Origin: Amoebophrya sp. A120
Lineage: Eukaryota > Protista > Dinoflagellata
Direction of reading: 5' to 3'
Assembly (NCBI GenBank): GCA_905178155.1
Contig: CAJINV010000005.1
Span: 439,319-503,318 of the forward strand
DNA: 64,000 bases
Positions 32,475-59,400 of this stretch are shown here, one piece after another. The position numbers and the translations under genes were made by a program. The notes below the pieces were generated by a model that saw only the letters and a list, made by a program, of their open reading frames with translations, was not told where the DNA came from and did no database searches. The first letter of the stretch is position 1. Each line of letters starts with the position of its first letter.

Positions 32475-35278
32475 TCACACCGCATTCGGTCCAGTCGACG
32501 CGCTCCTCCCACCCGCGCTAGGATGCTCCACACTGAGCGAAATCGCACTCGGATCTAGCCCGTCATCCATGATTGCCCCAGTGGAAGCGGATGCGAGGGT
32601 AGTCCTCTCTTCCGTGTCTCCTCTGGAGAAAGATGCCGAGGGAGTCTTCACGGCCGGTCCGTCCAAAAATCCTTTATTTTTCGTCCCCACATCCGGACTC
32701 GCGACCGGCTGCCCGCCCGTCGCACCACCAGTTGTAGCTGACGCGGTGCCACCCCGACTGGAATTTATCGACTGCTGCACTACGGCTGCTTTCGCCGTGA
32801 ACTCCGCTACTATAGCGTGCAAATTGTCGTAGAACCCGAACACGATCGCGATGAGAAAAGTCGCGCCCGCGAAGTAGCGAAAGAGCGCCTGGATGTTTCC
32901 ACCAAACGCCGCGTCGATGAGGAAGCCGCCGAGGACGGATCCCATGCCGGTCCCGAGACCCGTAAAGGTGGAGTGCAATATCGACTGCATGGACGCTTTC
33001 CGACCTTCCGCGAACTGCCTCCCGATGTAGACGGTTATCGAGAGGTACGGAAACGCGAAGGAAAATCCCGCCATTTATCCTGAGTAAAAACGTCCCCACA
33101 CCAGAGTTGTCATGCAGATTTGCAAGGACAGGAACATTTGTAATGCGCATCGCCAGGAAAGGCATTTTTAGTCGTGTTTTGGAATTTGTAATGCTGTAAA
33201 CAGGATGAGCAGATGGATTTCTGATGCAGCTGGCCTTGCGCACCTGCACTGCACTACGGACTGCAACTTGTGATGCGTGACCCCCAAAAGTTCTAGGTGT
33301 GTGTTGCAAAATCCCCATCTTGACTCTGGTGTGGGGATGTTTTTACTCAGGATACCATTACCTCGGCGTACATCGCCTCCATGGGTTGCGTCAGTACGCT
33401 ATGGAATGCAAAAATGTCTGGGTCTGGGAGATTTCTGGATTTGTCATGCATATTTTCCATGACCCATGATGTCTGTGATGCATGCCGTAGCATCACAGAT
33501 TTTTAGAGCGCTTTGCGATACCTCTACAGCATGAGAAATACCCTCTCCGCGTAGCACAAACTGGAGTCCTCTTGCTGGTCATGCAATACAAATTTTTTCA
33601 GAATCCAGAGACAGCATCACAAGTTTTACTTAGAATGTTCCAGACCCAGACATTTTTACATTTGATATACGCCGTACCAGTACAGTCTGATGGAGTTGAC
33701 ACACAAGAAGAGAATCTGCGCGTTCGGTAGCGAAATCTGGTCCACCAACTGCATGCCGTAAATCCACACCGGTATCTCGAAGATCATGCCGAACAGCCTG
33801 CACGCGCCCATGAAGTCCACGCCAGCGTTGAGCTCAGAGAGCATGATGAACTCGTAAGCGCCGATGATGCCGAGCTGACAACCCAGAATAAACAGGGCGC
33901 ACACGACTCTGAGAGAAAGTGAGGTTTTGTGAAATACAATTTAAACTTATGCAAGTTGATGTTGACTATGACTGTAGTACGCTGTACGCAAAATGAAAAT
34001 TTTTGACTGGTGCAACATTCGCTGAGATGCAGTTCTACAACCATAATCTCAAACTACTAAGTTGTACTTGTACACCCTTTTACTAGTGCTGTCTCTACTA
34101 GTATACCTTGGACAGCCTTCGGTGTTCCAGATTTGCGCCACCAGTGCTTTGAACTCCGCGTAGATTGAGCGCTCCCGCAACAACCGATCTGCGTCGGGCG
34201 TCACGTTTTTTACGTATTTGTGCATGATGGCCCAGTACACGCTGGATGCGAAGCAGATCACGGCGAATGCGACGAAAACCTTATCCACTCGTTCGTACGG
34301 GGCGGCTTCAGAAGTGCCTGCGGCGACGAACAAGCCGGTCAGGGCGGCGAGAATCCCAAACCCGAAATTCCCGAAGAGACGAACCTGATACAAATGGAGT
34401 TTAGCTTAGTTATTTTTACAACAAGACGAAGACCTCGATGCTGCAATGTGATAGTCACATCATTGCAAAACCAAAATCTCGGGGGGAGCGGAGCCCGAGC
34501 AGAATACATATATCACAGCATTGCAAAACCAAAATCTCGGGGGGAGTTCTTTCCAGATGCAGAATTATACAGCGAACTTCTTTATACTATACCTGTCCAA
34601 ACTGTGCCTTGTCCTTGAACGCATACAAGCACTGTGCGTCGAGAACTGAGTTGCACCCTTTCAGGCACGGCGCAGTCAAAGCGGTCAGGAACAGAAGCAT
34701 CCAAAAGGAATCCGCAAACACGATGTAGAGGAATTTGAGGGCGCCGGTTGCGGACATGGCGATAACCTTTCTTGTGTTTGTTTTGTATTGCGTTGTGTCA
34801 AACAAAATCACGCGGGGCAGGCGCTGTGGCATCACATCATGTTGCAACGCCATCAAAGACTGGAAGTTGTATGAAAAAACTATACCAGTCCCCAATTATG
34901 GCACTTCCAGGTATCTAGTATCCCTCCAAAAAGTGGCACGAGCAGGATGCTGAAGCAAATATCCGCAGCCGCCATGAAACCGACCTGCGTCGGGGTGTAG
35001 CCGTGCAAATGGGTCCACAAGGCGACAAAAGGAATGAACGCCCCGAGCAGGCCGCCTTTCATGAACAGAGCCCCGGCGAGAATGGCCTTCTGTTTCACCG
35101 TGATTTCACCGGGGATGACGTAGTCCGTTGAGGAATTTTCACCTCCTGCCTGGTGATCGTTACCTCCATCGCTGGCACCGCCCATGTTGACGGAAGTCGT
35201 CGTGGCGCCGTAATTCTGGTCGCCGGAAAGATGCGGGGCAGAAGTGCTGCCTTGATTGCCGGTGAGGCTCATGGCCAT
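32475..35278 (-). CDS. Major facilitator superfamily transporter (MFSD6/MFS_1-like); 2 introners plus GT-AG introns
   Basis: Repeated hydrophobic helices; PLFGGILDTW, FGQVRLFGNFGFG, FEIPVW and GLGTGMGSVLGGFLID motifs. Confidence 0.85.
33076..33354. mobile_element. TIR introner, family E
   Basis: TATCCTGAGTAAAAACGTCCCCACACCAGAGT / ACTCTGGTGTGGGGATGTTTTTACTCAGGATA; DR CCATT/CCATT. Confidence 0.94.
33400..33667. mobile_element. TIR introner, family A (opposite orientation to 4065-4326)
   Basis: DR TACGC/TACGC; removal gives YWYGVLTQP. Confidence 0.92.
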
Positions 35279-35944
35279 CGTCGAGTCGCGCGTCGGTGGC
35301 GGGAGATGAAGTAGGTGTGGCCTGGTCTGCTGATCCTCAGATTCAATCTGGTTTCCGTTTTCGAAGTTTCAGCCGTCCTTGCCGCGCTGGGCGGACAAGG
35401 GCAGGATTTTTCGAGGATGTCATGATTCGCATTAGTTTGTTCCGTGTTTTTTCTTTATTTTTGTGCGAAAATAGTCACAGGCTTCTTGTCAAGTGAGCAA
35501 AGATATAGCAGGACGAAAAGTTATTTTTTCTTTGCAGCAGGAAGCCGGGCACCATGGGGCGATACAAGTTAGCGATGCTCTTGTATTTGCCCTCTCTAGC
35601 TTCTCGTCGTCTTCGCCTTACGAAAAATATGCGAACCAACGCTCTTTGATGCTTGTAGTTGCGAGTGCGTTTTTGCATTCTTTTAGGCCAGTCGTAATTT
35701 TGGTCGCAGCCTCAACATCGCTCCACACTCATTGAAAAAGTGACGCGAAATGACAACTCGAGAACAGAAACACGAATAAAAGCGGTTCCAAAAAGGTTCG
35801 TGACCTGTCTGTAGGAGACTGCGTCACGACTGATACGCACTTTTCTCACTTTTACTCTTTCGATGAACTGATGTCGCTATATTTGTTGTTCAGAGCTCAA
35901 CATGTCGCTTCTTCTATATGCTTTTTCCAATTTGTATTTGACTT

Positions 35945-37708
35945 TCAGAAATATTTTCTCAGAAGCTCCGTACCAAAATCAAACAGGTCTTGTAACCCAC
36001 TCCGATGCAAAATCAGAAACCTCGCTTCAAAGTTATTCCTCTGCACGACGTTATCTTCAGTTGGGCCTTCTTTTCCGCGGTCCATGTTCTGGAAAAACTC
36101 AGGCTCATAGTGCAGGTCACAGCTCCGGTGCGAATGATGCATCGATTTAAACATCACAGCGACCTCCTGCGGTTTGTTCGTTTCCTTACATCTTGATTGC
36201 AGGCAACAAATCAGGTCCGTGTCTTTGATCGGGACCTTTTTGGTATTATCAAACTCATCAGGAACAACAACCACATCAGAATCGTCTTCAGCATCGCTTT
36301 CTCCTTCTGCTCCATGTAGAAGTTCTTGTGGCCGCTTTACTTCTGTTCCTCGTCCTAGTTGTTCAGCTGCAGAACTATCATCTGCAAGAACTTCTACCTC
36401 CTGCGCTGCCTGTTTCTCTATCAGACCTTGCACCTGTTCCGAAAAATATTCGTCCAGCAGCCGTTGGTCCTGCTCCTTATCCGCCCAAATCCTCTTGGAT
36501 TGCACGCACAACGAGCTCGCCACCGCTTTCTGGTCGTGACACAGCGTGAACCACAGGTTGCACACGTCATGTTCGGCCTGGTTCAGTATCAACCGGAACT
36601 TCTTCAGATAATTTTCGTATTCCTCCGGCGATGCTGCGCGCCGGATCACGTCGCGGGCGGGGACTTGTTGTGAAGCTTGTAGTTGCTCGACTGCAGCGGG
36701 TGCTGACGAGTGAGGGAACGAGGAGAATAAAGGTTCATCTTCTGGCACCTCTTCATCTTCCCCTGCAACAGTCGATGGCGTACGCGTGGAAGAACAAGCA
36801 GCGGTGCTATCCCTTCGAAGTAAATTCAACGGAGACGCTGCAGCTTCATTATCATTACCACGACGTTTCTCGTCCGCCAGCTTCTCCCCCGCACGCCGGT
36901 GCCACAGTGGCAGCCAGGAAAGAAGAAACTCTTCTAGCACCTCTTCTCCGTTGTTGCAATCCGAAGTTGGATCGTTATTCCATCTGTCCTTGAAGCAGTC
37001 GAAGTCCGTGTGCCAGTGGTTCAAATAGGTCTTTTTCCCGTCGAGCCCGATGCCCCGGGTTCGGTAGGAAATAAACAGAACCTCGCAAGAACAGGCTTCA
37101 TCGTTATTCTTTCCCTCACATTTTTGGTCGTTGTACACGCACTGCAGATGATTTTCTGCGGCTTGTATCAGAGGACGAAACTTCGTATCGTCGTCATCGT
37201 GCAAGGGGCTTTTGTTCATCCCCTCTCTGCAATTTTTTCGATTCTCTTCGTAATCCGGGTGGCTTCTCCAGTTTTTGTAAAATTCCCGCATGTTCCCGAT
37301 CTGTAACGACAGATGCTCGATCTCTGACAAGTTTTTATCGGCGTGCTCTGATTTTGCTTTTTTGTTCTGCGGCCGTGATGTCGTCCCCTCGTCGGGCAAC
37401 CGGTACACTCCGATTTTCTCCAAACATTGCTTGGCCCAAGAGGTGTAGGAGCAAGTGTCGCTACTTGTGATGGTGGAGCTTTTATCTACTAAAGATGAAA
37501 GATCACTATCCGGCTTCACCCTTCTTGTTCTACTATCAAACTCCGGCAGCGCGCGCACCCCGGTGAAGCGATTCTCTCGGGTCACTTTGGGAATTGTGAA
37601 TCTGCTTCCCAGAGACTCATAGAGCGTGTATGCCGCGTTCGCCTTGACTCCGTCGGCGAGCTGGAGCTTGTCGAGGGAAAACTCCTCGTCCTGGTCAATT
37701 ATGGGCAT
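35945..37708 (-). CDS. Hypothetical protein, possibly CmcJ/NvfI-like Fe(II)/2OG oxidoreductase
   Basis: Uninterrupted ORF (first ATG 37708). HWHTD, CNLWFTL, MFKSMHHSH and RNNFEARFL resemble the HxD...H...RxSxExR pattern. Confidence 0.6.
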   Translation of the reverse strand: MPIIDQDEEFSLDKLQLADGVKANAAYTLYESLGSRFTIPKVTRENRFTGVRALPEFDSRTRRVKPDSDLSSLVDKSSTITSSDTCSYTSWAKQCLEKIGVYRLPDEGTTSRPQNKKAKSEHADKNLSEIEHLSLQIGNMREFYKNWRSHPDYEENRKNCREGMNKSPLHDDDDTKFRPLIQAAENHLQCVYNDQKCEGKNNDEACSCEVLFISYRTRGIGLDGKKTYLNHWHTDFDCFKDRWNNDPTSDCNNGEEVLEEFLLSWLPLWHRRAGEKLADEKRRGNDNEAAASPLNLLRRDSTAACSSTRTPSTVAGEDEEVPEDEPLFSSFPHSSAPAAVEQLQASQQVPARDVIRRAASPEEYENYLKKFRLILNQAEHDVCNLWFTLCHDQKAVASSLCVQSKRIWADKEQDQRLLDEYFSEQVQGLIEKQAAQEVEVLADDSSAAEQLGRGTEVKRPQELLHGAEGESDAEDDSDVVVVPDEFDNTKKVPIKDTDLICCLQSRCKETNKPQEVAVMFKSMHHSHRSCDLHYEPEFFQNMDRGKEGPTEDNVVQRNNFEARFLILHRSGLQDLFDFGTELLRKYF

Positions 37709-38346
37709 TTTGGTGTTTTGTGCTTTATTTGCACTCGAAATATACAGGTTTGAACCAGAACTACCGTATGTTCTTGGTAGCGTCTGGCAAAAAAATAGAT
37801 TTTCGAAATCTATTTTCTTAAACAAGCGTGAGCGTCTGGATGTCGGTGTCGCTGAGTAGAATAGAGATAAAATGGCTGATGTCGCAAGGGGCAAAAATGA
37901 AGGACCAAAAACAAAAAGAGAAAGACGATCATGATAAGATATGATTACTAAAGTTCAAAAGCTAATGGATCCATGAGATTCTTTCTCAGCAAGATCTACT
38001 GTTTACACTTGCAAAGGGATTTGTTTTCCAAGATCGATGCACTTGCCACCGCTGGACATCGGCGCAGCGAGGTATCGCCGGTGCGTGCAGTTTGAATCTT
38101 TTATTTCTTGCCCGCTTTATGTTTATTTTTTCTTCACTTTCTTTTCTCTTTTATCATATTACACTCTTTGCTTTTTTTTTCCTTCGTTGTTTCCGATTCC
38201 GATAGTGCGTATGCATTTGTGAAAATCTAGACCAACAAAATTGAGCCGCAAGACTATTCAGAGGAAGCAAAATTCAAAAACTTTATTCCTGCGTAAGTAG
38301 TTCGGTGGTGTGCATTTGCGTATCGAAACCTGGTTGTGTGAAATTC

Positions 38347-41300
38347 TCACATCACAATCTCCGTCGCCTGCTCTCCACGACCTTCTAGATGCATTTCTGG
38401 AACATCAAGCGCTTGCGTGTAGAGCAAGGAAAATTGCATTTGCAGCAGCTTCACCCCGTTTTCGTCTGCATTTCTATTCCTTGCGCTTCTTGTTCTACTT
38501 CCCGCGTTGCTGCTTCTAGTCAGTCCGCAGACGGAAAATTTTGGAGAAGGGCCGCTGCTCTCGTCCCCGCCCACAGAACCGCAATTTGTAACCGACACCA
38601 CTTCTTCTGGTAGTTCCCAAGCGAGGCGGTTCTCCACGGGAAGGGCTGTTTCCAGATCCCAGATCAACTCCAGAATCCGCTTGTTTTCTTGCTTCAACCC
38701 GAGTAGAAATCGGTTTTGAACCAATACTATCGACTGAAACATCCTGTCCTCCACGAACTCCGCGACCGGGTACAGGTTTCGGTCGTAGACGGTAAGCAGG
38801 CCAATAGACTGATCCAGCACCACGGTATGGATCTTCTGGCTTGTTGGGTTACTACTAGTCGCCTGTTCTGCTCTAGTACCTCCGTGCGCAGTAGCAGGTG
38901 GATGTGGAACGAGAACATCCGCGGCAAGTTGTTCATCCTGTGCGAGAGGAGAAGACGGTGCTCTTGATGTAACCGAGGCGGTACTGCTGGCATCTGTCCT
39001 CTCAGTAGTGCTGGAGGCGAGCAAAATGTGCGTCGGCGACGTTGCAGCTGCATCGTGCGCTGGTTGGAAAAAATGCTGGATCTGTGGCCCGGTGAAGATT
39101 TTTTCTGCACTGCTTTTTCTGTTTTTCTTTTTCATTCCGAAAAACAACTCTGGCCTCGGGCATGCGATGGCGATCTCGTGTTCTGAAAGCAGCGGCAGAG
39201 AAGTACTACCTGGTCGCCCGCTTGATTCCGCCACGACGACAGGCGTACCTTCGTACACAGTGAGCTCGGATACCGGGGCGCGCACCGCACAAGAATCATC
39301 TTCTACAGTGTGGTTTGTTGTACTAGCGTGAGCATCTATAATTGCATCATCTGCGATGTCAGTTGGAGTTGATACCATCCCTGTTGTACTCGTCGCTCCT
39401 AACTCCACGCGGTGCAGGCGGTACGTGTCCGCGAGGAAGCAGACGAGATTGTTTGTCTCTCCTGGTGCACGACTTCTCGTGCAGGCAACAGCCATGGGCG
39501 AGAAAAATGCCGCATTCGCTTTTTGCGGTTGTATGGTGTGCACTGCGGTTAGTCTCGGTGTGTGAAGGTGGTAGAACACATCTGGCGCGCCTACCGTGGT
39601 TGCGGAGCTAGTAGCGGGCGCATTGTTCCTAGAAGTTGTACTGGAGAAGAGTATTGGCAGGATGCTCGAAGTCGCGTAAGAGACAGACGCAAGCTTAGCA
39701 GCCAGGTTCAGCTTGTCCGTGGAGGAAAATGCAGGGGCGCTGTGATGCCGATGCAGCTGCTGGTTAAAAGCAGCTGCGTGTCCTCGTGCGGTGTTGCGAA
39801 GATCGCTGCACTCCTCGTAGGTGCGTGATAATTTGTTGTCGCGCGGAACTACTTCGGCCTGCCCCTCATCGGAACTAGAAGCACTTGCTGTGTAGCACAA
39901 TACCCTCCACCAAGACACGACCGGGGTCGTCGTGCTGGAAGAAGAGGCACCACGAGCAGATGAACTGTCGTTTGGCCGTCCAGAATAAAAGTGCTGGTCA
40001 TCTTCTTGCTGCTGGTCCTCGCTCCCCCCGCGGCTATCAAATGCAAAAAGTGTCTGGGTCTGGAAAGGTTGGACCTTGTGATGCTAACTTTGGACTCTAA
40101 AAAAATTTGTATTGCACGACCAGCAAGAGGAGTCTAGTTTGTGCTACGCGGGGAGGGCGTTTGTCATGCGGAGTAGGCATCTGGAAGCCCTCTAAAAATC
40201 TGTGATGCTAAGTCGTGCATTACAGACATCCCGGGTCATGCAAAACCTCCATGACAAGTCTCAGAATCTTCCAGAACCGGACATATTTGCATTTGATAGC
40301 GGCCCTGATGAGGCAACTTCCTTCGTATCCAGCTCGGATCCTGCCCCCCCGGCACGTTCGCACCGAAGGCCATGGTGGAAATCGACCAGAGCAACCCGAT
40401 ATGGATTGCAAATATGTCTGGGTCTGGAAGAGTGCAAGATATGTCATGCATATTTCTCATGGCCCATGGTGCCTGTAATTCATGACCCTGCATCAGAGAC
40501 TTTTAGAGGGCTTCCTGATGCACCTTCCGCATGAGAAATGTCCTGTCTGCGTAGCACAAACTGGACCCCCCTTGCTGGTCATGCAATACAAATTTTTTTC
40601 GAATCCAAAAACAGCATGACAAGTTCCAGACCCAGACATTTTTGCATTTGGTACCCGACGGTCCACACCCCGACCAACACGGCGGAGCCGGCGAAAAACG
40701 TCTTCCAGGGCAGCAAGCCCGGCGGCGCGGCTCGCGTTCCCGCGCTCGAAGAGGACGAGTTATAATTCGGCGTACTCCCGGCAGATTGTTGCAGACTCAG
40801 GTTCGAGAGCTCCCTCTTCCGCCGCAGCCATTCCAAACTCCGGTTCCAGGACGACGAAGGGTCGTGAGTACAATTATCCGGGCTGTTGTTGTTTGCACGG
40901 GAAGATTGATACTGATCATCTATTCCTCTTGGCGTTCTTGTCGAAGTGGCCGCGGCTCCAGGCGCGGTGCCTCTCCTTCCTCTCGTCGCAGATGACGAGC
41001 CGTTCGCTACTTCCTGTGGTCCAGTATCATCTTCCCCTGCACTCGAAGAGGACATCACATTCCCCCGGTGACTGGGCGTGTTTCCAGTTTTCTCGGAGGA
41101 GTGGGGAAACGGGTGGAAACTCACCGCAGCCAGGGGGCGATTGACGAAATGTTTCATCGTCCCTGCGTCCACCCCCTCGCGGCCGCCGAATCGCCACTCC
41201 TGCGCCGGGTTGTGGCGGTCCTGATTGGAGGCCGGTTTCGGATTTGGTGCGGGGGTTTTGTTCGATTTGTTCCGTTTTTTGGAGCTGCTGTTGCTTGATG

Positions 41301-44300: not shown

Positions 44301-44305
44301 ACCAT
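38347..44305 (-). CDS. Large multi-pass membrane protein of unknown function; 2 introners plus GT-AG introns
   Basis: ORFs 43997..44305, 43070..43909, 40579..43062 and 38347..39918 join in frame (WL|YLISIS, IE|AKAPMV, TVGLLWS, QGRGGSE). Several TM segments and long S/T/G-rich tracts. Confidence 0.75.
40035..40298. mobile_element. TIR introner, family A
   Basis: DR GCGGC/GCGGC; interior closely similar to 4065-4326. Confidence 0.93.
40400..40653. mobile_element. TIR introner, family A (inverted relative to its neighbour 40035-40298)
   Basis: DR CCCGA/CCCGA. Confidence 0.92.
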
Positions 44306-45142: not shown

Positions 45143-48100
45143 TCAGGTGGTCGACGCAGCAGCGGCTTTCTGTGGTGGTGAGCTTGCACCTCCGCTGCCG
45201 TCACCTCCAACAGCATTCCCCGCCGCCGTTTTCTTCGCAAATATGAAATGCCCGCGCGTCCGCCTGACTGCCCAGATTTGCCGTGGAAGCTGGTGTGGGT
45301 TCAATACGGGCAACACCCGACAAACGTCCTCGACCGACCCGGCGTCAAAAAGGCGCTTCAAGTGTAGGAGGGCGATCTGATTTTCGGATAATGTTGATCT
45401 TCCTTGTGCATTTAGAAACAATTCTGGTCTATTAGAACGTTTACGTTGCATAGGCATTCCTTTCAAACAGAGCAGCACGCACCAGATGCATCTTTGCATT
45501 AACAACAATAAAATCATGCTAAAAAATCTTCTCATGATGTCTTTCTGTCTACTCTCTTGCAAGAAGTAGAAGTACATGCGCCTTCCCGGTGTCCAGATCC
45601 AGCGCATCGGCTGCGTCGTTGATGTTCTTTTGCGCATGAATGGGTCCAGACGACAGGTAGTCGACCAGCTGCCCGAGCTCTTCGTCGCTGACTCCCATCT
45701 GCGGGCCCCAGATGTAGTGCTTTCCACAAACCAAGGCCTTCGTGACGTAGGACTGCACCGTTTGCGGTTTCAGGTTCAATTCCGACCCGACCTCCTCCAA
45801 CGTGTAGCCCTGCTGGAACACACGCAGCCAGACCCGGTGCACCGCGTTCGGGAGGAGAATCTCGTGGTCCAGTGGCGGTTTCATACTGTCGTCCGGAGGA
45901 CGAGGACCTCCACTCGGCGATGCTCCTGGATCGGTTGCAGAAGTCGCTGGAGAGGACGATCCACCGCTGCTTGCAGCTCCTGCTGGGGCGTTAGTACAAC
46001 CATCACTTCCGTTATTTGGAGGTGGGCTGTAGGTGCTTATCCTCTGCGGGACGAAGAGCCACTGATGGGACTGGGGATTTTCCAGGTCTAGGGGCGTGCA
46101 GTCTGCTACCGCAGGCGCAGGCTCAGGTTTCACTTTGGGTTTATTTCTCGGCTTGTTTGCAGCTCCTTCTTGGGGTGCAAGATGACCGGCGGCTGCACCA
46201 TCGTTAGCATCTGCTTGTGAAGATCCTCCTCCACTTGTTTCTGCTCTAGCGTTCGTCGCTGATGCTGACCCCCTAGCAGCGACATCTATTCTTCGCTTTT
46301 TCAGGACGAGATTAGTGTCCTCGATGTCTTCTACGATGTTGACCGCTGGTGCTTCTATTAACGGGGGTTTCGCAACCTTTGTGCCGAGAAACTCGGACAC
46401 CATGTGTAAATTCTCCTGCGTTGCCCCCACTCCCACCGGCGCCTCCTGATCGCTGGACTTTTTTCTCCTCGATGAAGCCGAAGACGTGGACGGTTTACGG
46501 AGCATGTTTCTCACCTTGCCGGGCGGTGCATCCTCGTCTGGTGCGGCACTCTGCGCTGCTGAAGCTCCTACAGAAGGCTGCGCTCCCGCAGCAAAGGATG
46601 GAGCGGACTCCTCGCCAGTTGTAGCATCTACTTCGCTGTTGGTACTAGATGATGAAGTTCCGCAGCTCACCGTTGTACCGTCGAAGGTTGTATCAGAGGT
46701 CCTTATTTCAGGTGAGGTACTTCTAGATGAACCATCCTCCGCAAGAGCTACAACCTCCTCTCCAGAAGAGAAAAACCCCTCCGGCAGCGTCGTGTCGAAA
46801 CACGCGGGTGCTTTCACAACTTTCAACCGGTTCGCTTTCCGCAATTTCAAAGCCAAACTGGCGGACGCAAACCGGGGCAGGAAAATCACCGGGCCGCTCC
46901 CTCCGGTCAGACTGTAGTGACTCGAGCACACCATCCCTTCCAGATTGAAGCTGGTGATATTAGAACTACTTCCACTACTACTTCCACCGGCGCCCTTGTT
47001 GCTGCTCTTTCTCACGTACTTGAGCTGCTCTGATTCCGGTAAATCTTGCAACGTCTCCAGCGCCCAGTAGGTCGACAGATGGCTCGCGGCGTCCGTCGCA
47101 GCGTACACTTGTTGCACGTTGGTGAGGGGCAGGTTCTCCCAATCGGAGCACCGGGTTTTCTTCGCTTTGTCCATGGGGACGCCGTAAAAGAAGGCACACA
47201 GAGAGGCCAGAGTGAAGTTCGTGATCTGATTTATCATAATTCTTGTTCTACTTGTCTCCCTTCGTAATATTCTACTTCCTATGCGCGTGCGCGGTGTTAA
47301 ATGCCAATGCGAGAATGCGAGGCTTATTAATCAAACGAGGACATAGGAGCAGATAGAAAGAGAATTGCACATGTACTGTTCTTGAACGAGGACATCACAA
47401 CCTTGTAAGTACCTCATCGACCTGGTCTTTTCCAACAGCCGCTTGTGGCGAGGCCGCAGACCCGGGGTTGATTTTCTTCCGTGCCAGCTTTTCCGTGTCC
47501 ACTCAATATTAGAATGAAAAATGCCCCCACCCCAGAATTTGCAAAAGTTTCTCATGCAAAGTTTCCAAATGAAAGATTTTTGTCTTGCATGACAGAACTA
47601 CGAACCTTTCTGATGCAGAATCTAGGTGCGCAAGGCATCTTGTGCAATGCAGACCCGGCTACTGTTGGGCTCCTTTGCAACACAACTTTGAGCTATTCAG
47701 CATGGAAAATTTGTGATGCTAAGATATGCAAGACGGCGAATATTTCATTTGGAAAGTTTTGCAATACAAATGCGTCCAAGTTCTGGGGTGGGGGCATTTT
47801 TCATTGTAGTACCCAAGCGACCTTGTTTTCCGACACTGTGATCAGGTTGTATAACCTGCTCAGGTGTTACAGTGTCAAACGTTACAATAGAATATGGAAA
47901 TCTGTGATGCAAGAGTGCATGTTCTAGCCCACTCTCATAGGATTGCGCATGACAAGTTCCGAAGTCCCAAATCCCACTAGAATCTGGCGAAATTTGTATT
48001 GCAAAAGGTGGAATGCTGTGCGAGTCTGTCATGCTGATCATGCAACACAAGCTCCAGACTCTATTGCAACGTTTGAGATTGTAACGTTTGAGCAAGCCAT

Positions 48101-48882
48101 AGGTTGTCGTTGACCAAGCGCGTGCAGTCGCCCTTGATATTCACCCCAACTTTCAGAATGTTGTCGTCCTCGAGAATCCGCTTCAGCGACGGCGGAAACT
48201 TCAAAAAGTGCTTCAGGTGGAAAAGCTTCACCTGAAAATGTTGTTAACAAGTTGCAGTTTCATAAGATTTTTGAGAACAAATAAAATCCAACAGCTGGTT
48301 TGCAACAAATAAGGACGAGAGCATCTTCGCGAGTCTTATCCTGGTGCACAACAAGATGGATCCAATGACTCGTCCTCCAGACTAGTGATGTTGTACTCGC
48401 AGTCGTATAGTAAGTACTTGCATTTTCCGCTGTAACGAGGCGTGTGAGGGTATCAGTTGTAGTGGCCAGCTATCCCTTGCGAGCGGGCTCTTATCTTCGT
48501 AGGCCAATTGGAGCAACGCGACTTTTGATCGGTGGTTTTTCCTGTACGACATATTCCACTCCGCGTCTACGCCCACGAGGGAAACCTTTTCTCGTAAAAT
48601 CTTCTTGCAAATCTCCTCTGCGTCGAGCGCGCAAGTCACGTACTGGCACCGCCCGGAAAACCTGAACGTATTTTGCATTCGGGAAGGTTGTGGCCGTGGG
48701 GGGCTTGTGCTTGTGGAGGAGGAAGTAGAACTACTCGATGAAGACGAAGTCGATCTCGAGCTGCGCGTCGTCGTGCTTGCTGCACCACTGGCAGCAAGCT
48801 TTGCGGCTGCCCGGGTGCTGGAAGAGGTGAGGCGGGAGGTCGTCACCTGGAGTACCGGGAAAGACCGGTGAAACCGAACCAT
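45143..48882 (-). CDS. WRN/EXD2-like DEDDy 3'-5' exonuclease with C-terminal helix-turn-helix; 2 introners plus GT-AG introns
   Basis: VGVDAEW, KVALLQLA, LKRILEDDNILKVGVNIKGD and SDWENLPLTNVQQVYAATDA motifs; HTH-like TLEEVGSELNLKPQTVQSYV. Both ends are inferred. Confidence 0.85.
47507..47811. mobile_element. TIR introner, family B'
   Basis: DR CTCAA/CCCAA; homologous to 3684-3981. Confidence 0.9.
47850..48101. mobile_element. TIR introner, family I
   Basis: TATAACCTGCTCAGGTGTTACAGTGTCAAACGTTACAATAG / CTATTGCAACGTTTGAGATTGTAACGTTTGAGCAAGCCATA; DR GGTTG/GGTTG. Confidence 0.92.
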
Positions 48883-50498
48883 CTTGCTTTGCCACTGAGG
48901 AAGATGGCAGCTGCGTCCTGGTGCAGGACGATTGATGTATGAAAATAAACGCGGGGTCGCCGGGTTGTTTTGCGGTATTGATTTCAATTTATGTTTATGT
49001 CGCGTATAACCACACTGGCTGCGACCACGCCAGAAAACAACTAGTACGACGTGACGTTGTGTTCAATAATTTCGTGCGTCGAAGCGGATCAGAACATATC
49101 GCATCCACGACGAACAGATACTCTCAGCTGCATCCACGAACCTGACAAGCTAAGCTGCACTTCAGTGGCATACACGATGATGGAGGCAGCTCTGTTGAGT
49201 CATGTGCCGTGAACCGAACCAGACGAGGCAGCCCGGGAAACCACCTTTGTCTAGATATTAGTACTACCTTAAGAATGACCAACGATGTGAACCATCACCA
49301 GCAACGAGAACTCACTAAAAGTCGCTTCAAAAATTTCTCACTCAGACAGAAACACGCAGCTATTGCCATTTCGACGCCTCTATTTACAAGTTGATCCGGC
49401 CTATTCTCGTGTGGTCCGGATTTCATCGCTCCAGAAGAAAATTTCAACTCGGTCAGAGTGAAGTTCTGCGACGATAATCGTGCACGGCTCGCTCGAAAAT
49501 ATTTCTACCAGCACTCTCAGGAGACACACGAACCAGATGTTTATTCCCCTCACCAAGAACAGGCAGTCCGGCTTGTGTGCGGATAGTCGCAACATCATGC
49601 GACATTTTTTCCTTTTATAATTTTTGCTACATCGACCGCATGAAGAACAAGATGTTGGCTTTCCCACACTGCCAGTTTGGAAAAGGTGAAAGTGCCATGA
49701 AAAGTGTGAAGACTGGTGCTCACCACCAGGATGGATAAAACCTCGGATAGGAAGCTGGAGGAGCTCTAGTATGGATGAAATTTCAAGATCAAGAACGTTT
49801 GGTACGACAAGTAATGATAAATGGCACTAGAACAAAGATATACAACTCATACTCACGACGTCCACAGCCACTCAATATCATATTTTTTTTTTCATTGCTT
49901 TATTTTCAGTGCCCATGATGATACTTTCAAAAGAGGCGGGACGATATTCAAATTTGTTAAAAAGTCATTCAAAATTGAAATTCTTGGTGAAGTGAAGTTT
50001 ACTCCCAGGTCGTGATAAAGTTTTCCGGGCGAGAAAAATGCAATAATTGCGGAACGGCTCAACAGTGTAACTTCATTTTGTGTCCGCATGGAGGACTCGT
50101 TCGTTTTGCCCGTCGGAACAGTTGTGAAAGCAATAAAGCCCAAGTAGACAAGAAGGCATTCGATTCCGAGAGACCTTTTTCATTTTTGGATGTGTAGTAC
50201 GGTGTCGCTTGTTGCTGACGAGCTTGTTTCTCGTGTCGTTGGTAAAGTCCTTCAGAATTTCGATCCGCGCCTCCCCCGACGGCTGCAGCCGCGCCGACCA
50301 CCTATTCAGGGATAATTTCAACTCGTCCGTGCTAAAATGCTTATGATTTTGGGTTAGATGGAGGTGGCACGCATGATTACCTTCCACACGACGTCCCAGA
50401 CTGACTGCTACCGCATGATATATTTCATTTCCTGCTATTTCAATCCATTTCTATAAATATTCTTCAACAGAAACAAACGCATGATGGAAAAATTTCAA

Positions 50499-53400
50499 CT
50501 ACGTAGAAGTACCTCCGCCCCGTCCCCGGGACCGCGAACGATCCCGGCGTTCCCTGTGATGCGATCGCTTCCGGCCTGCTTGGTGATCTCCACCGCGACC
50601 ACGCCCTCCTCCCACGTCGTCCGCCGACCCACGTCGGTTGCTATGATGCGTACCACCGCGGGAACGGCGCCGGGACGTGGACTTATTTCGGCCACGCCGG
50701 TTGTCCTTGCTTTCCGCTCGTGGTTGGTGTTGAGAAGCTGTGGTGCCGCTTGTTGGTTGCTGCAGTCCAAAAGACGAAGACCCACCTGCTCCCATCATGC
50801 TGTTCTGCAATTCGGTTGCTTGATCAGTATTGGATTGATCTTGTCCTGCGAAAAAACCAGCACTTGTTTTTTTGGAAGTCCAGCATGCCGGGTCGCCGGC
50901 AGCACTTATTTTTGTGCTATCGGGAAACGTAGAGGTTGATACGTGTTCATCGGTTTCGGCGGCAGCTGCGTGTTTATCTGTGTCACCATCTGTCGCGGTC
51001 GCTGCAGTTTTATTCGCATTACAGCTGGTCTGCTCGTACGGGTTGTTGTAGGCACCCCCGGCCGCGGTTCCGTAATTGTAGGAGTTGTAAAGTTGCTCCG
51101 CATAGGCGGCAGACGCAGCTGCATCCACACCGCTCGTTCCACTGCTCGTCCCCCAGAACTGCGCGGCCTGATCGCCGCTGTAGGTCCGGTCACAACCGCC
51201 TCGTGACGTGTTTGTTGCGTCCCCGCGACCACCTTTCATGCCACTTCGGCTCCGCTCGCCCCTCGTACCGCCACCTCCTTGCCCCGGCGGCGGGTGGAAT
51301 TTCGGCCGTCCCTGCCCGGGAGGTCCCTGGATGTTGCTCCCATAGATGCAGCTGTTCAGGTTGCTCGTCGGGGAGATGCCACTACCACCGCCTCCGTGGG
51401 CGGCTCCAGTGGAGCTGTTGTACCAGTGGCTTTGGTCGTGGGCTCCTGCTCCGGGGTACGCACCATGATGAGCTGCTGCTGCATTACTGTGCCAGTGGTC
51501 GGAGGTGGTCTGTGGGTCGTCAAAGGCAGATAGCATCTGTCCTTCGGACGACGTCATGGAAGAAGACGAATTGTAGTGCGCCGGGTTTTGCTCTTGATCT
51601 GGCCCCCGCTTGTACGGGTCTGGCATCACATTCGGAGTTGTGCTGGTACTATTTGTGGTCGATGATGGTTGAAGATCAACATCTTGCCCGCCGCGACCAC
51701 CACCGTGAGCGGCTTCCTGCTGCCGCAGCTGGTCACCAATGGTGGCAGCACATCCGGCAGTACGAGCAGAACCGGCATTTGCAGTAGTCCTCCCGCTGTC
51801 CTCGTGCAGGGCCCCAACATCAAAGGCACCTGGAGCTGCCGGAAAATCTTCGAGGTCATCATTTTCTGCGGCCGCGCCCATCAGCAACGCGGCCATGTCC
51901 GCTGCGGCGGAGCAACCGGCTGGTTCAGAATTGTTGTGGTGCCCATGGCCGCTGTCTTCGGGAAGGGACGGGGAAGATGCGGTGGTACTGCTGGTGGGGA
52001 AGGTAGACATTTCGTTCGGTGCAGCTTTACTCCCACGAGGACCGCCTGCGTGTTGTTGACCATACGGGGCGTTTGAATTGTAGTTGCTCAAACTACTGAC
52101 CGTGTCCTCAGGAGCTGCTGCTCCATTCGGTGGTCCTTGCTGTAGTTGACCACCTAGACCTGCTTCTGCTGTTCCACAAGAGGAGCCGTAACCTGTTCCA
52201 TAATGAGCGCTCGACGTGGTCGTGGTCCCAACATGTTGAAAATCATGCTGCGCCGGTTTATTCGGACTAGGCGTGTTTTTTTTCATGCTCATCGCATTTT
52301 CAAAACTTGTAATGCCCCCGCGCTGATGAAGAATGTCTGTGTTGATTTTGTTCTGCATGGGATTATAATTCGACGAGTTCTTGCTTTTGTTTTGCGCACC
52401 GCTAGAAATACCACCACGATTCGGCGAGGACGTTGTCCCGTGGTCTTCGCCAAGCAGCGCGTTCTCGATTTCCCGCTGCTCGGAGGTGCTGGAATGATCC
52501 TGCAGAGGCGGCGGGGGTCCTCCCGAGTGCGACGAGCTAGTACCGTAGGCTGATGGATTGTTCATCTCAAACATATGTTTTAGTGGGTCCTCGTTTGGTG
52601 CTTCTAAAGCTTGTGGCTGATCGTAACCTCCTCGACCGCCCTGTCCGTACGCGCCCCCAGTCGCGCCCATACTGGCATTGGTCTCTGGCACAAACGCCGG
52701 ACCTCCTCCGCGATGATTGCGGTCGTGAAGCGGGGGCCCATGCTGGTCCGATGCTCCTGAGTATCCGCCGCCGTAGGGTCCGCCTCCTCCGCCTTCCTGA
52801 TTGTAGCGTTGAGGACCACGATGGTCAAAGTGATCTCGCGCGGCCGAGCTGCAGCCGGGTCCCCCGCGAGGAGGTGGACCATTTTGCCCATGGTAACTAG
52901 TTCCACTGCCATAGTTGCTCCTATAATTTCCCCCGCTACACCCACCCGCAAAATGGCTGCTCCGATCGCCGCTCACTTTACGTTCTGGAACGACTCCTGC
53001 TCCCGAGTTATTAGTCGCAGCTTTATTTCTGTCCACCTCCTTGCTCAGCTTCCGCTCCGGCGGGGGGAGAACTTGACTGCCTTTTCTTTCCTGCCGGTTC
53101 TGCGATTGATGATTCTGGCCCGATTTGCTGCGGTAGTTATTATTGTTGTGGGAAGTAGAACTATTGCACGACTCTTGTTCCGATTTCTCCTTTGTGTTGT
53201 CGACTTCCTTCGAACTTTTTCGGTAGTTGTTCTGTTGCGAGTATGACTCTTGTTGAGTACTAGAATTCTCGTCCTGATTCCGATTTTTGTTATTTCCGAG
53301 GACACTGTCATTGTCGTTACTTTTCGACGCATTGTTGTTCATCCACCATTCGCCTCCGCCTTTGCCACCCCCTAGCGGGCAGAGGTTCGGGTTGTCGTAA

Positions 53401-56400
53401 TGATCATCCTTTTTGTTACCTCTAGATGAAGTACCGCCTCCACCGCGTGATTGTGATTGGGGATTATTACCTTCCTTGTTGTTCCCAGATGATGAATGAT
53501 GAGAATTATTTCCGTAGTTGTTCTCTTTAGACGAGTTCCGTGATCCACCTCCACCCTTCATACTGTGGAGTTCCATCATGTCGTGGTATTTCCCACCATA
53601 CCCGCCTCCTGCGCCCATCTTTCCCTTCACCATCATCATGTGCTCCCACTCCGCCTTTCCCATCGGCCCACCCCAGCTCCCTGGGGGGCCCCAGGAAGAG
53701 GGGCCTCCACCCGGCGGGCCGCCTTTCATCATATGATCGCCTCCTTTGCTCATCATGTGGTGCTCGGACCAAGAACCTTTCGCAGCCATCATGTCCGGTG
53801 GTACAAAAGGACCCACACCTCGTTGTTCACCACCTCCGTAGGGACCACCTCCCGCTATCCAAGAACTCTTGCCACTCCCGCCACCATCCATCTTCCCCCA
53901 AGCAGGTCGATCCGGGCCGGTGAGAGGTCGGTCTTTCCCGCCGTTATGCGGGTTCATCCAGTTGTCACTGTACATACCCCCCTTAAGCGGGTCGCCGAAC
54001 GAGTTGTGATGAGAACCGCCACCTCTTGCCCCCATGATATTGCCAAACGGTACTCCCGGGCTGCGATCGTCGTTGTAGCTACTGCCCCTCATGTTTCTGT
54101 CACGGCTGCGGCGCTGATGGTTGTCGTTGTAGTTGCTTCCACCTCGATTGCTGTGCATGTTGCTATTCCCTCCATTCCCTCGGCCCCCGCCACCTCCGCG
54201 GAGGTGATCACGTTCGTGATTGCGGCCGCGATGGTAATTGTCACCACGGTCTTGCATATTGTAGTTGTTTCGATGACTGCCATAGTTGATGTCGTAGTTC
54301 CGCGGTGTCGCGATGCTGCAATCCCTTGCAGCTTTCCCCTCCAGCTGATCGAAACCCACCGGTTCGTTTTGATGTGGTCTTTTGTAGCCCCCGCCTCCTG
54401 CTTTCGGTGTGTAGTTCGTACCGCCGGACCGGTGGCGATTTTGGGCTCCGGTTGTGGAGCGGTGGGTGTTATTATTTACCCCCGCGTGACGCCCGGAATG
54501 ATCGTCGTTTTGGTGGTGGCCGCCTCGACCGCCGCGGTGGTCACCACGATGATGATTGTGATTTTCACGATCGCGGTGTTCACGGTCACGGTTGTTGGCT
54601 CCATGTGGTCCAGCACCTCCACGGTCGCGGTCGTGACCATAATTATCATCCTGGTTGCTGTAATTTCTTCCGCCTCTAGAACTATCGTGATGACGGCCAC
54701 GGCCGCTGTGGTCGTTATGTGCTGAATGTAGTTGCCCATGTTGCCCACCTGTCGAAGTGCCGCCTTGTCCTGCTCCCCTCGCCAATCCACCATGGTCACT
54801 GTAGTTGTAACTATCATCATTCAGGCCATTCGCATTGTTCCCGCGACTCAAGTCGTGTCGGCCTGACCGGCTGCCGCTCCGAAGATGACTGCTGTTGTTC
54901 ATCATCGTCCCACGATCTTCCGAGCGGTTGGTCGCTGACCCAGAAGGTGGGCCTACACTTCTACCGGTTGTTGGCGTTGGTCCATATAGCAACTCATGGT
55001 ACGTATGAACTGCAAAAGTATCGTATTCGTATAATTGCATTACAAATCTCCTCAGCATGAGAAAGAAAATTTGTAATGCTGATTTACCCCCACAAAAAGA
55101 TTTGTAATGCATGATTGCAATACGAATACGATACTTTTGCACAGGATAGTACGAGATTCCCACCGGCGGTTGCCGAATAGCGTGTGGTGCGCCGGGACTG
55201 CTCTGTGCGCCGGGGCCGGAAAGACGTACACCAGAGTTACTTTTAGGGTTGATATTGCCAACATTACCACCTCCGCTGCTCGAAGTAGTTGTGCCTCCAC
55301 CTCCGCCGAATAAGTGCGCCAATGCCTGGTTCACTACAGCTGGATCCGCCGCGGGCGGAGCACCAGCGTTAGTACCCCCGCCATTCGTCAGCATCAAATC
55401 GATGGTCTTGAAGAAATCTCCATCGTCTGCCTTTTTCGCTGGTTTCGGAGCCCACTTTCGACTTCTCCCGTTATTTCCGGAGTCGTCATTAGATTCCGGA
55501 GACCCGGACCCCGCATAATTGTTGTTGGCATGATCAAAAGAGCCCCCGGAACTGTTTGCCAGATGGTAATTATTGTTTATCGCCATACCTCCGGAAGCAG
55601 AGGAACTATTCGAGCCTGTTCCACCTCCTGCTTCTCCCAGCAGCTGCAAAGCGTTCATGGTTTGCGGAGCAACTCTACTTTCTCGCTCGGCTTTCGCTGG
55701 AGAGGGGGGCTTCGAGGACTCATTCCGCGTCACGGTTAACCCTGCCAGTTGCAAAATGGTGTCCACGTCACTCGCGGAAGCGTTTGCCATGCTGCCGCCC
55801 GAGGAGGTTTGATGTTGTGCGGGCTTGGTGATAGTACTTGCTTCTGGTTTATTCTGCAAGCTGAAATTATCCTGGTTGTTCGGAGGAACTATCGTAGCGG
55901 AACAATTCGCAGGTATCGTCGAACACACGACACCTGCAGGTGGTGGCACAACCAGAGCAGCAGTCGCCGCTTGCGTGACCTTCTGCAGCTCCTCCGCGAC
56001 CCGCATGCGCTCCTTCTCCTCCTGCCTTCTGACCACCTCGTCGTGGTAATTCAAGTACGGGAGCAGCAGGCCTTGCAGGTAATTGGAGAAGTCATTGGGG
56101 GTGAGGATTTCCCGCAGCGCCGCCGAGGTGGGGGAGACAATACGGCGGAGAAACTCCGCAGGGCTGGCTTCCATGAAATTATTGTTGTCCACAAAACAAA
56201 CCCGCAAACAGCTGTTTTTCGTCCGCGTCAAACTGACGTCTAACTTTCCAAACCGGTGCGCCCCATGGGGGCTCCGCGTCCAGGGGAGTGGAAGCGGCCA
56301 CTGCTCAATCACCTTCTCAAATTGGTCCGCGTCCTCCGCGCCGGCCTCTTGCTGGATCTTCTGAGGTGTAATTATGTTTTTGATGTTTCACGATGTACTG

Positions 56401-59400
56401 TGTGTTCTTTGTTGAAGCATGAAGTAGATCTTCTGCACGATAGAGCGCTCTACAAACGAAACATCGATATTAAATAAAGAATAAATAACTCCAGTGCTGT
56501 TGCTGTAAACAAAGAAATCGATACGTTCTTCCCGGGGGTTGTTCCAATGTCGAAGTTTTTCGTTGCTTCGTCAACTTTCGGATCGCTCGGCTTCACCATG
56601 AAGAAGCACACCTCGCACACGTCCTGGAAGTGCAACCGGAGAATTTCTGCAATCGTCTGCGCCCGCAGGATCGGGGGGTTTGGTAGCCGCAACGCTTTCA
56701 ACACTTCCCGGCGGAAAGCCGGCTGGTGCAAGGACCGCCACGACAGAAACACGTGGTCCACGGTATTACTATTTTGCTGTTGGCCCCCGCCCCCGCTCAT
56801 GCAAGAACTGCCGCCTCCTTCCCCGTGATGCAGAGAGCCGCCACTGGTCCCCCCCGGCGTGCTGCTTTGCTCCATCGGCGAGTTGCCGTTCTGTCCCTGC
56901 ACGTGGTTCCGCTTGTTTTCCACGTGGTTCGGCACGGAAAAGCACCGGATCCGGTGAAACGCCGCTCGCAACGCGCCGGCCTGCCCTTTGCGGGTGGAGA
57001 AATTGGGGTCTTCGGTTTTCTTCTGCAACTCGATCGCCGCATTGTAGTTGTCGAGGAACATCTTGTTCTTCATGTTCCGGGCGTTTTGCAGCCAGCCGGT
57101 CATGATCATCCCGTGCCCCGCGGCCATGAAGTACTGGGCCTGCAGGGCTTCGACCGACTGCATAATGGAACCGAGAGGACCTATTATTTTGTGATTTTTG
57201 GAAAGAAATAAAAAAAACGCAACGTGAGCGAAGAAGCTCAAAAACGCGACGCGAATGAAATAATGAAAACAAAATCGACAAAAATTTCTACTTCATGTGT
57301 GAAACAAGATGTCGTCCAACAGAAGTACTTAATTGCAAGAACTACGTGGCACAGGAGGAGCTGCCGGAAAAGTTTTATCAGTACTCTTCTCCGCATCCTG
57401 ATTTTTGAAACTCATCGCCTGGATATTCTGCAGCTGTTCGGCGATGCTGGAGATGTGCTCGAGCACCAGTGCCAAGTGCAGCAAAAAGTGCTCTATGACC
57501 TGCTCAAGCGTTACAATCTCAAACGTTACAATAGAGTCTGGAATTTGTGTTGCATGATGGGCATGACAGACTCGCACAGCGTTCCACCTTTTGCAATACA
57601 AATTTCGACAGAATGCAGTGGGGTTTGGAGCTCCGGAACTTGTCATGCGCAACCCTATGAGAGTTGGCTGGATCATGCTCATCATGCAAGACAAATCTCA
57701 GATTCTATTGTAACGCTTGAGATTGTAACGCCTGAGCGGGTTATATGCTCCTTCGCCGTCTTTTGGGAGTTCTGGACCGTGAAGCGGAGCATGTCCGACT
57801 GGAGATGGGAAAACAAGTTATCATTCAGCTGCTGCAGTGCAGCCCTGTGCAGGCCAACGTCCTCCGCGTCAAAAACCTGTAGGGTTTTTGTTTCATCTTG
57901 TACGAAAGGACAATCATCCTCGCGTGTTGACTTCCTTCCTGAACTTGCACTCTGCAAAGCTGACGAGAAAGAACCTCGACCCAACAAGCGCACAATGACA
58001 TTGAACATGAAGTATGGGTAGTTCTTCTTGTGCTGAAAAAATAACAATATTTATAGTTTAGTAAATACCGACTTTCCCTCGTGCGACACGAGAAACGCGC
58101 AATCGGGGCGGTAAATTGTCGTGGGTACTTTGACCGCCCGCTGCTTGCTAATCTCTCGCTGGCTCCGCGGGAGCTCGCCCCGGAGTGCTTTCATCAGCCG
58201 CCGTTCTGCGTTCAGCCAAATTCGGTTCAAGTCTTCTTCCAGCCAGGACTGGAGTCTGTCGCCCAGATTCTTCAACAACTCCGTGGCGTACTCGGTGCAT
58301 TTCGGAAACTTCCGAATCAGCAAATTCGTGTCCAGAAACCGGTCCGCCTTGTGCAACAACGTTTCGTAGAACTTCCTCTCCAAATCCACGTCTTGAAGAT
58401 TGTCCTTCTTCTTGTTTTCGACCACGGAAGCATTTGCAGTATTCGGCTTGTTCGTGGTGTTGCTGTTCATCCTGGCCGCGTCCGGGCTGGCGAGAAACTT
58501 CTCCAGGTCGTGGTCTTCGTCCTTCTTGTCTAACTCGGAAATTCTTTTGTTGCGCAGGAAAATTTCCCGCTCCTTGCTGTAGATGCTAAGAGCGTGTAAA
58601 CAGAGCTCGTCGTCTAGAATGAGCTTCTCCAGTTTCTTCCGTTTGTTTGTACTATGCTGTTCTTGTGCGCCGGCTTGGTGTTTGTTGGCATTGTCTTTGT
58701 TCTCTTTCTTCTCCGCTGCGGCTGCTGAAACAAGAACGTCCTGGCTGTCAGTCCCGAACATCGGGGAGTCAAGGTCCTCAAAGTCATACTCGTCTTCGTC
58801 CTCCGAACTGTGGTCTGGGTCTTCCACCTCGACGACGCTCGGGCCGCTCTCGTGGCTCTTCACAGTAGAAGTCGCCTGCGGTTGTACAGCGAAAGCAACA
58901 TGCGCGTCGGTTTTAACATTGCTGTCCATAGCTGGTGCACCAGCAGTTGTAGTTTCCCCTACTTTATTAATTTCCGCCGTGTTCTCTGCGTCGGTCGTCC
59001 CAAAAATCATGCTTTCCTCGTCATGCTGATTCGCGTCATCTTCCGGTGCGCTTGATGCTTGTTTCATTTCCACGTCTGCCTGCCCATCATGATCTGCACC
59101 AAGAACCGTAGTACCGCCGTAATAATCCTGTGCATCATCAAAATCCAACAGATTCCGCGTTTTATTCCTCTGCATCTCTTCGGATGTTGACTTTCTCATT
59201 TGATGTTCCACTGTCGTTGTTTCATTTGTTCCGCTGTGCGCCGAAAGAAGTGGATGACTCGCTGCAACTTGATGTTGCAGCTGGTGGGTCCTCGTCTGAT
59301 GTTGACCACGATGTACTTGGTCAAGACTGCTTATCACCGGGGAGGATGTCTTTGAATAAATCTTCTGAACTGGTGGAGCAACTTTCTTCGCTTCTCCGAC

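Follow-up and report, generated by a model that had tools for sequence, protein, structure and literature searches.

Elements of opposite orientation are lost exactly from transcript contigs of Amoebophrya sp. A120

INTRODUCTION

How can an insertion be cut out of a transcript whichever way round it lies? The question is raised by a stretch of 64,000 nucleotides (nt) from Amoebophrya sp. A120 (contig CAJINV010000005.1, positions 439,319 to 503,318 of the forward strand; "the window" below), in which genes read from the minus strand are interrupted by short elements with inverted-repeat ends, and members of the same element family lie in both orientations. An initial annotation of this DNA had proposed that removal is orientation-independent and uses symmetric features (a terminal stem-loop in pre-mRNA, a two-way array of an internal motif, or double-stranded DNA), on the argument that spliceosomal signals are strand-specific. 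Here, we report that both orientations are lost exactly, as the element plus one copy of its target-site duplication (TSD), from transcript contigs, and we weigh the mechanisms that might account for this.

For this genome, the elements have already been published, along with their non-canonical removal and the proposal of a hairpin. According to the accessible text of Farhat et al. 2021 (PMC7789003), 65% of the introns in A120 are non-canonical, its genes lie in co-oriented blocks, and its introners are backed by RNA-seq; these introners are ~240 nt long, with inverted repeats that open with TAT, followed by seven variable bases and at least three A, and with direct repeats of 3 to 5 nt, and a hairpin was proposed to bring the exon boundaries together. 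The elements in the window share the TAT-n7-AAA inverted ends, the direct repeats, the removal without GT-AG, and the division into families, whereas their repeats run to ~30 nt against 8 to 20 nt for the published motifs (PMC7789003). The searchable text of that article covers gene orientation only and leaves the cut position open, and a search for a printed orientation test for Amoebophrya introners, which took in neither subscription papers nor the supplement figures of PMC7789003, found none.

RESULTS

Homologous elements in both orientations

A scan for TA..TA ends combined with terminal inverted repeats (TIRs) and a 5-nt duplication returned 34 candidates in the window, versus 0 to 3 in five local shuffles. 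Four candidates were discarded (three nested within other elements and a weak one at 49316), and five elements with slightly damaged ends were added by hand to the 30 retained, giving a final set of 35 elements of 121 to 329 nt that occupy 9,165 bases. The TSD is perfect in 29 of them, matches at four of five positions in five, and at three of five in one. At the element ends, the inverted repeats span ~30 nt; all 35 elements begin with TA, followed by T in 33, and 32 retain the terminal TA at the 3' end, while A occupies positions 11 to 13 in 29, 29, and 33 elements, respectively. TAT, G9, and A11-13 are common to unrelated element families. At positions 4 to 8 of family A copies, the variants of left and right ends are intermingled, irrespective of pairing. 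The features of miniature inverted-repeat transposable elements (MITEs) are all present, i.e., TIRs, TSDs, short length, lack of coding capacity, and dispersed copies, and the very high summed depth over the elements in a DNA-like run (X1) marks them as repeats in families.

Orientation was scored from internal sequence only, with 45 nt cut off each end to exclude any effect of the inverted repeats, and the background, taken as the maximum of 500 shuffles, was 31. Scores for opposite and same orientation, respectively, were 224 and 32 for 33400 versus 40035, 178 and 28 for 4065 versus 28751, 216 and 25 for 13730 versus 40400, 223 and 60 for 47850 versus 57494, and 147 and 71 for 3336 versus 7993, in agreement with the families (A, B, and I) and coordinates that the initial annotation had given for elements in both orientations. 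Six family A copies align over their full length, half of them as read on the transcript strand and half on the opposite one. The family A tally is eight forward to six reverse (binomial p 0.79), i.e., no orientation bias in a small sample, with 12766, 15678, 21274, and 29434 placed in the family via weaker links (scores 60 to 129). Family B comprises two forward and three reverse copies, and family I one of each, plus 28351 as a weak third member (score 68).

That all host genes are read from the minus strand was confirmed in two ways: all 10 canonical introns with RNA joints read CT..AC on the plus strand, and removal of the element plus one TSD leaves at least 100 stop-free codons on each side for 22/35 elements on the minus strand versus 0/35 on the plus strand. 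Controls in which the removal was shifted by 1 nt and 2 nt gave 1/35 and 7/35, respectively.

Exact loss of both orientations from transcripts

Transcript evidence came from public runs mapped to two stretches of the window that hold 13 of the 35 elements, the other 22 lying outside. Runs X3 to X6 (one study, two samples) are read as contigs of spliced transcripts, i.e., cDNA, because 10 GT-AG introns are missing from them, and six of these introns are present within ungapped contigs of X1 (~45x). Exact joints, in which the element and five bases are missing, were found for at least seven of the 13 elements (33076, 33400, 40035, 40400, 47507, 47850, and 55004), and these joints fall inside the TSD. 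For 28351, 28751, 29434, 29755, and 59546, there was no RNA joint among the matches listed. The elements with RNA evidence are as follows (elements carry no strand entry; forward and reverse give their own orientation), together with two canonical introns.

33400..33667: family A reverse with a perfect 5-nt TSD, in an MFS-like gene (Pfam MFS_1_like in the flanking exons); RNA joint 33394 to 33668 in both X3 and X5 (273 nt, 5 ambiguous), with a depth of 0 in X1.
40035..40298: family A forward; RNA joint 40029 to 40299 (269 nt) in 4/4 runs; fold z-score -6.8.
40400..40653: family A reverse, in the same gene as 40035 and ~100 nt away; RNA joint 40393 to 40653 (259 nt) in 3/4 runs, at a contig depth equal to that of 40035; fold z-score -5.7.
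47850..48101: family I forward, in a 3'-5' exonuclease domain (pieces of PF01612 on either side); RNA joint 47843 to 48101 (257 nt) in 4/4 runs.
57494..57745: family I reverse; breaks at 57488 and 57746 (257 nt), deduced from the 106-nt and 129-nt sides of neighboring joints, both present in X3 and the 129-nt side also in X4.
47507..47811: 4-of-5 TSD, of which the upstream (right-hand) copy is kept in RNA and the other copy would give a stop; RNA joint 47500 to 47811 (310 nt, 2 ambiguous) in 4/4 runs.
33076..33354: internal motif in a single direction; RNA joint 33070 to 33355 in X3 and X5.
55004..55148: short, removed where in-frame read-through is possible; RNA joint 54998 to 55149 in 3/4 runs.
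33909..34106, minus strand: canonical GT-AG intron, a control and one of the 10 with RNA joints.
47226..47412, minus strand: canonical GT-AG intron, skipped at a contig depth equal to that of 47507 and 47850.

More specifically, exact loss was seen for family A forward (40035), family A reverse (33400 and 40400), and family I forward (47850), and by side lengths for family I reverse (57494). The opposed copies 40035 and 40400 are both absent from a single X3 contig, in which the 95 bases between them are exactly retained. At the sites with joints listed, neither orientation was seen to stay in, and the removal assumed in the initial annotation is borne out for both orientations in transcript contigs. 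Splicing efficiency and minor products are not readable from contigs.

Annotated proteins gave the same picture. Proteins P0001 (a PP2C protein) and P0021, both labelled Amoebophrya sp. A120, match minus-strand exons of the window in every letter; an 82-residue PP2C exon and a 106-residue exon of the second gene each matched an A120 protein at 100%, and the PP2C exon also matched an A25 protein at 80%. P0001 joins across copies of family A forward, family A reverse, and family B forward, its A25 ortholog P0002 is ungapped at four element sites of this gene, and P0021 joins across the family B reverse copy at 7993. The protein annotation may rest on the same kind of transcript data. The elements supported by proteins are listed first below, followed by those supported by internal-sequence score and frame test.

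13730..13995: family A forward, PP2C gene; P0001 joins across.
12766..13024: family A-related, reverse, PP2C gene; P0001 joins across and P0002 is ungapped.
11211..11473: family A forward, PP2C gene; P0001 and P0002.
11517..11827: family B forward, PP2C gene; P0001 and P0002.
7993..8303: family B reverse, TSD mismatch at position 5; P0021 joins across.
7032..7251: 4-of-5 TSD; a stop would arise from the downstream copy, and P0021 is continuous with the upstream one.
28751..29026: family A reverse, 3-of-5 TSD; removal joins a 2394-codon frame.
29434..29694: family A-related, reverse; score and frame test.
59546..59807: family A forward; score and frame test.
4065..4326: family A forward, short-chain dehydrogenase gene; score, frame test, and Pfam.
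3336..3647: family B forward; score and frame test.
16276..16599: family B reverse; score and frame test.
19792..20120: family B reverse; score and frame test.
15678..15938: family A-related, forward; score and frame test.
20194..20455: family A forward; score and frame test.
20538..20816: family A forward; score and frame test.
21274..21527: family A-related, reverse, in one gene with 20194 and 20538; score and frame test.

Several further observations concern individual copies. The short elements 55004-55148 and 18560-18680, whose removal is length-neutral, have one open frame each; read-through of 55004 would add 50 residues, and the open reading frame (ORF) at 50499-56387 spans it. Annotated proteins still join across two decayed elements (10586-10799 and 6453-6780) in which only 22 to 23 terminal pairs out of 30 are left. 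At a depth of 11 to 22, RNA contigs in X3, X4, and X6 carry a family I copy that has an internal gap of 67 nt and is flanked by foreign sequence (matching 47850-47964 and 57492-57712); RNA therefore includes at least one copy from elsewhere. Run X9, a set of raw reads that bears the same species label and has no exon match, gave six partial reads; it includes reads that join a family A-type end (33634-33668) to another flank, so this type of end may occur at different sites in a related strain.

Features common to both orientations

On the transcript, forward and reverse copies of family A present identical first 34 and last ~28 consensus nt, because the ~30-nt repeats are inverted. A donor-like or pyrimidine signal within the inverted repeat would be offered both ways, and the argument against the spliceosome therefore does not follow. 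Of the inference drawn in the initial annotation, one part holds, i.e., that removal must rest on features common to both orientations, ordinary GT-AG sites being unused; the other part, that strand-specific spliceosomal signals are ruled out, is not supported, given ends that are identical on the transcript and ordinary introners known to work in both directions. A strand-specific signal in the element interior is excluded.

The internal motif TGT(G/C/A)(A/T)TGC was counted 139 times in the 9,165 element bases and 13 times in the remaining 54,835, and it is absent from 10 canonical introns. Most occurrences point inward, and 29/35 elements have the motif in both directions. A two-way motif array is not required for removal, as 33076 is removed in RNA with its motif in one direction; the motif is likely a transposase site and not a splicing signal.

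A terminal stem, scored as present when at least 15 of the first 30 nt pair with the opposite end, was predicted by folding for 35/35 elements on the transcript strand, 34/35 on the other strand, and 0/10 canonical introns; the shuffle z-scores given above cover the two elements 40035 and 40400. The stem proposed in the initial annotation is accordingly predicted throughout, yet it shows no transcript-strand bias toward G·U over A·C mismatches (35 versus 34). Pairing is weakest near the junction, with Watson-Crick pairs in 19 to 29 of 35 elements at positions 4 to 8. Taken together, the weak pairing, the conserved TAT/G9/A11-13, and the lack of G·U bias count against recognition by shape alone.

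Position and sequence of the cut sites

Elements with mismatched duplications reveal which TSD copy is retained. The two copies at 47507 differ at position 4, and the upstream base was kept in 4/4 runs, whereas the downstream base would create a stop; only registers -1, 0, and +1 therefore remain. Likewise, the downstream copy at 7032 would create a stop, and the annotated protein P0021 uses the upstream copy. The cut follows transcript direction and is asymmetric; the 5' cut would lie at the base of the stem and the 3' cut approximately four to six bases past it, in a sequence that is different at every site.

Canonical donors in the window (n = 17) read G17 T17 A16 Y15 W17, i.e., GTAYW (Y, pyrimidine; W, A or T) and not GTRAG. 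In register -1, the elements read N, T35, A35, Y35, and this is the sole register of nine with a positive mean donor score (0.8 versus 5.3 for the canonical set). By comparison, a GY-AG pair in any TSD-allowed register was present in 1/35 elements on the transcript strand (2966, GC-AG) versus 3/35 on the non-transcribed control strand. CTRAY was found in 3/35 elements and in 2/17 canonical introns, a set itself without a clear branch motif. No protein match was found for the frame across 28751 from which Asp or Asn could be read at TSD position 5. The 3' ends of the 17 canonical introns (e.g., 33909-34106, 47226-47412, and 12187-12368) are rich in A and show little of a pyrimidine tract.

In Table S4 of PMC7789003, the nine commonest non-canonical pairs of A120 all have T at +2, and the nine pairs of A25 all start with TT, the A25 repeat starting with TTA. 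The same article reports that, of 89 spliceosomal proteins, all except 6 were found in A120, U2AF65/35 and U1 proteins being among those present, and that the U1 small nuclear RNA (snRNA) was not found in A120. A U1 snRNA that goes undetected in A120 may have an altered 5' end.

DISCUSSION

Candidate mechanisms

We give an even chance to a relaxed U2-type spliceosome that reads repeat-encoded ends and uses the stem as a ruler. Elements that would have spread as non-autonomous DNA transposons give the pre-mRNA, through their ~30-nt inverted repeats, the same two ends either way round, and a predicted terminal stem of 17 to 30 pairs would draw these ends together. The 5' cut would then fall at the base of the stem, the likeliest position being one base upstream of it, such that the intron starts with N-U-A-Y, resembling a canonical G-U-A-Y donor of this genome in which the G is relaxed; the 3' cut would fall four to five bases past the stem within the downstream duplication, placed by distance and not by AG. 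There is a possible precedent in Fritillaria, where MITE-derived non-canonical introns are apparently spliced by the spliceosome, according to a review (PMC11282704).

Several points weigh against a relaxed spliceosome: (i) the donor likeness may be a coincidence, since TA..TA ends are also typical of IS3EU/GingerRoot transposons; (ii) element positions +5 and +6 do not fit the canonical donor, and TSD position 5 is not enriched in G (9/35); (iii) the register is set by one RNA junction (47507) and one annotation (7032); (iv) the asymmetry between 5' and 3' ends is not significant (terminal base changed in 0/35 versus 3/35, p 0.24); (v) the balance of G·U and A·C, null at four window sizes, gives no sign of selection for an RNA stem, in a test that donor-inherited mismatches weaken; (vi) a shared branch motif was sought in the elements and not found, a comparison without power as the canonical introns show none either; (vii) the pairs in Table S4 depend on how the aligner placed ambiguous junctions; and (viii) all transcript data are cDNA contigs from one study with two samples.

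A possibility that we take seriously without thinking it probable is a spliceosome-independent endonuclease and ligase that would read the terminal RNA stem, cut with a fixed five-base stagger, and join the exons. This would explain why no dinucleotide is conserved at the 3' cut and no base at +1, and it accords with the stem predicted in every element, with the failure to find U1 snRNA in A120 (PMC7789003), and with euglenid TIR/TSD introns, which leave as circles (PMC11282704) and for which a mechanism of this kind is suspected; exact removal in spite of an imperfect TSD (47507) would also suit a fixed geometry. Conversely, the weak pairing by the junction, the conserved TAT/G9/A11-13, and the absent G·U bias point to a reading of sequence rather than shape. 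We consider it rather unlikely, and offer it only tentatively, that tens of thousands of copies are removed by a third pathway of nuclear splicing, one that needs neither a splice-site dinucleotide nor internal sequence; under the same joint estimate, its nuclease-ligase would read the paired TAT-n5-G-n-AAA RNA ends, with a stagger matched to the duplication. Such a nuclease-ligase would perhaps be built from the transposon's end-binding protein.

It is highly improbable that the elements remain in mRNA and that reverse transcriptase slips across the hairpin with its flanking short repeats. A hairpin with short direct repeats is a known substrate for slippage, the products of which can reach 70% of cDNA reads (PMC8240250); all data here are cDNA or annotation built on cDNA, and the RNA contigs carrying element ends with foreign flanks indicate that some copies elsewhere are present in RNA. 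However, retention would cause a frameshift or a stop in every frame for 33/35 elements, including five copies in the PP2C gene conserved in A25. Moreover, 47507 keeps the upstream base, whereas slippage would be expected to keep the downstream base, and although one broken repeat abolished slippage in the published experiments (PMC8240250), 47507 and its neighbors are skipped at equal depth. Slippage may inflate apparent efficiency.

Excision from double-stranded DNA before transcription, in the manner of ciliate internal eliminated sequences, would be orientation-blind by nature, and TIRs, TSDs, and inward motifs are features of DNA transposons; nevertheless, we regard it as very improbable. 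X1, which is unspliced across canonical introns, holds the elements in contigs that pass from exon into element, and both joined forms listed have depth 0 in that run; such contigs drop rare variants, and X1 is a single sample. In addition, the TSD copy kept at 47507 and 7032 follows transcript direction, being transcript-upstream, though both genes are on the minus strand. Double-stranded DNA, the third symmetric feature named in the initial annotation, is disfavored on these grounds.

Finally, use of ordinary or cryptic GT-AG sites by an unchanged spliceosome in both orientations, for which one could cite GT in register -1 in 9/35 elements, the GC-AG register of 2966, and nearby in-frame GY/AG pairs for 6/8 RNA-checked elements, is scarcely credible, as the nearby pairs differ from the joints seen, 0/7 listed RNA joints have a transcript-strand GY-AG register, and 47850 has GT..AG on the non-transcribed strand only. 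For the dominant product at seven sites it is refuted, minor products being invisible in contigs.

Relation to known systems

Introns that work either way round are known from other lineages. In Polarella glacialis, classes 2, 3, 6, 7, 8, and 10 form G(T/C/A)-AG introns in either orientation, and two-orientation introners had been reported earlier in Aureococcus anophagefferens (both in the accessible text of Roy et al., bioRxiv 10.1101/2020.10.14.339549); the search of Gozashti et al. 2022 also allows opposite-orientation insertion (PMC9860276). Like the elements studied here, the introners of Polarella and Aureococcus are transposon-derived, flanked by TSDs, and introns either way round. They differ in that G(T/C/A)-AG is supplied by the element or by a constrained TSD, with an orientation bias, whereas the TSD in the window is unconstrained and 34/35 elements lack GY-AG. 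Because two-way introners are known in other dinoflagellates, the orientation result should be of little surprise to specialists; it is an RNA-supported property of a known system, modest in surprise.

Euglenid nonconventional introns (PMC11282704) likewise have a TIR stem that joins the ends, TSD-like repeats, non-canonical borders, and a probable MITE origin; they are set apart by pyrimidine|purine borders, a CAG/CTG core, and circular excised RNA. No back-joint of the kind that a circle would give is among the joints listed for the transcript contigs here. The MITE introns of Fritillaria borealis (Henriet et al. 2019, as reviewed in PMC11282704) share TIRs, TSDs, and removal with non-canonical ends, and prefer AG-AC and AG-AT, whereas here no end pair dominates except the element's TA. 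IS3EU/GingerRoot transposons (PMC10045372) have the same TA..TA termini, with a TSD that is usually 6 bp as opposed to 5 bp here; no transposase was found in the window elements, where the search was made. This resemblance is a lead and not evidence of membership.

Implications

How the 65% of A120 introns without GT-AG are removed is a question posed by Farhat et al. (PMC7789003), and the present data narrow the ways in which they could be cut out, as exact removal in both directions means that all necessary signals lie within the terminal ~30 nt and in the duplication geometry. Mismatched duplications offer a cheap map of cut sites from existing RNA reads, one that would separate a relaxed spliceosome from an endonuclease and ligase. 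With either mechanism, transposons can insert into exons at almost no cost to the genome. If a third pathway did operate, any insertion, in any orientation, would be erased from mRNA scarlessly.

Other features of the window

The Pfam scan covered minus-strand frames only; ORFs of more than 150 codons on the plus strand overlap longer frames on the minus strand and were regarded as shadows of these. An Rfam search of the window returned 0 matches. Very short exons (17 to 38 nt, duplications included), at 11828-11844, 47812-47849, 3648-3683, and 21241-21273, are bounded by elements on both sides or by an element on one side and a canonical intron on the other. Removal of four elements from 23095-31376 leaves a 2394-codon frame with a RING finger, for which no protein match was found. 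Intergenic arrays of a 10-nt C-rich unit occupy three patches within 5512-6000, and a stretch of ~30 nt is duplicated (34450-34560) inside the canonical intron 34385-34592.

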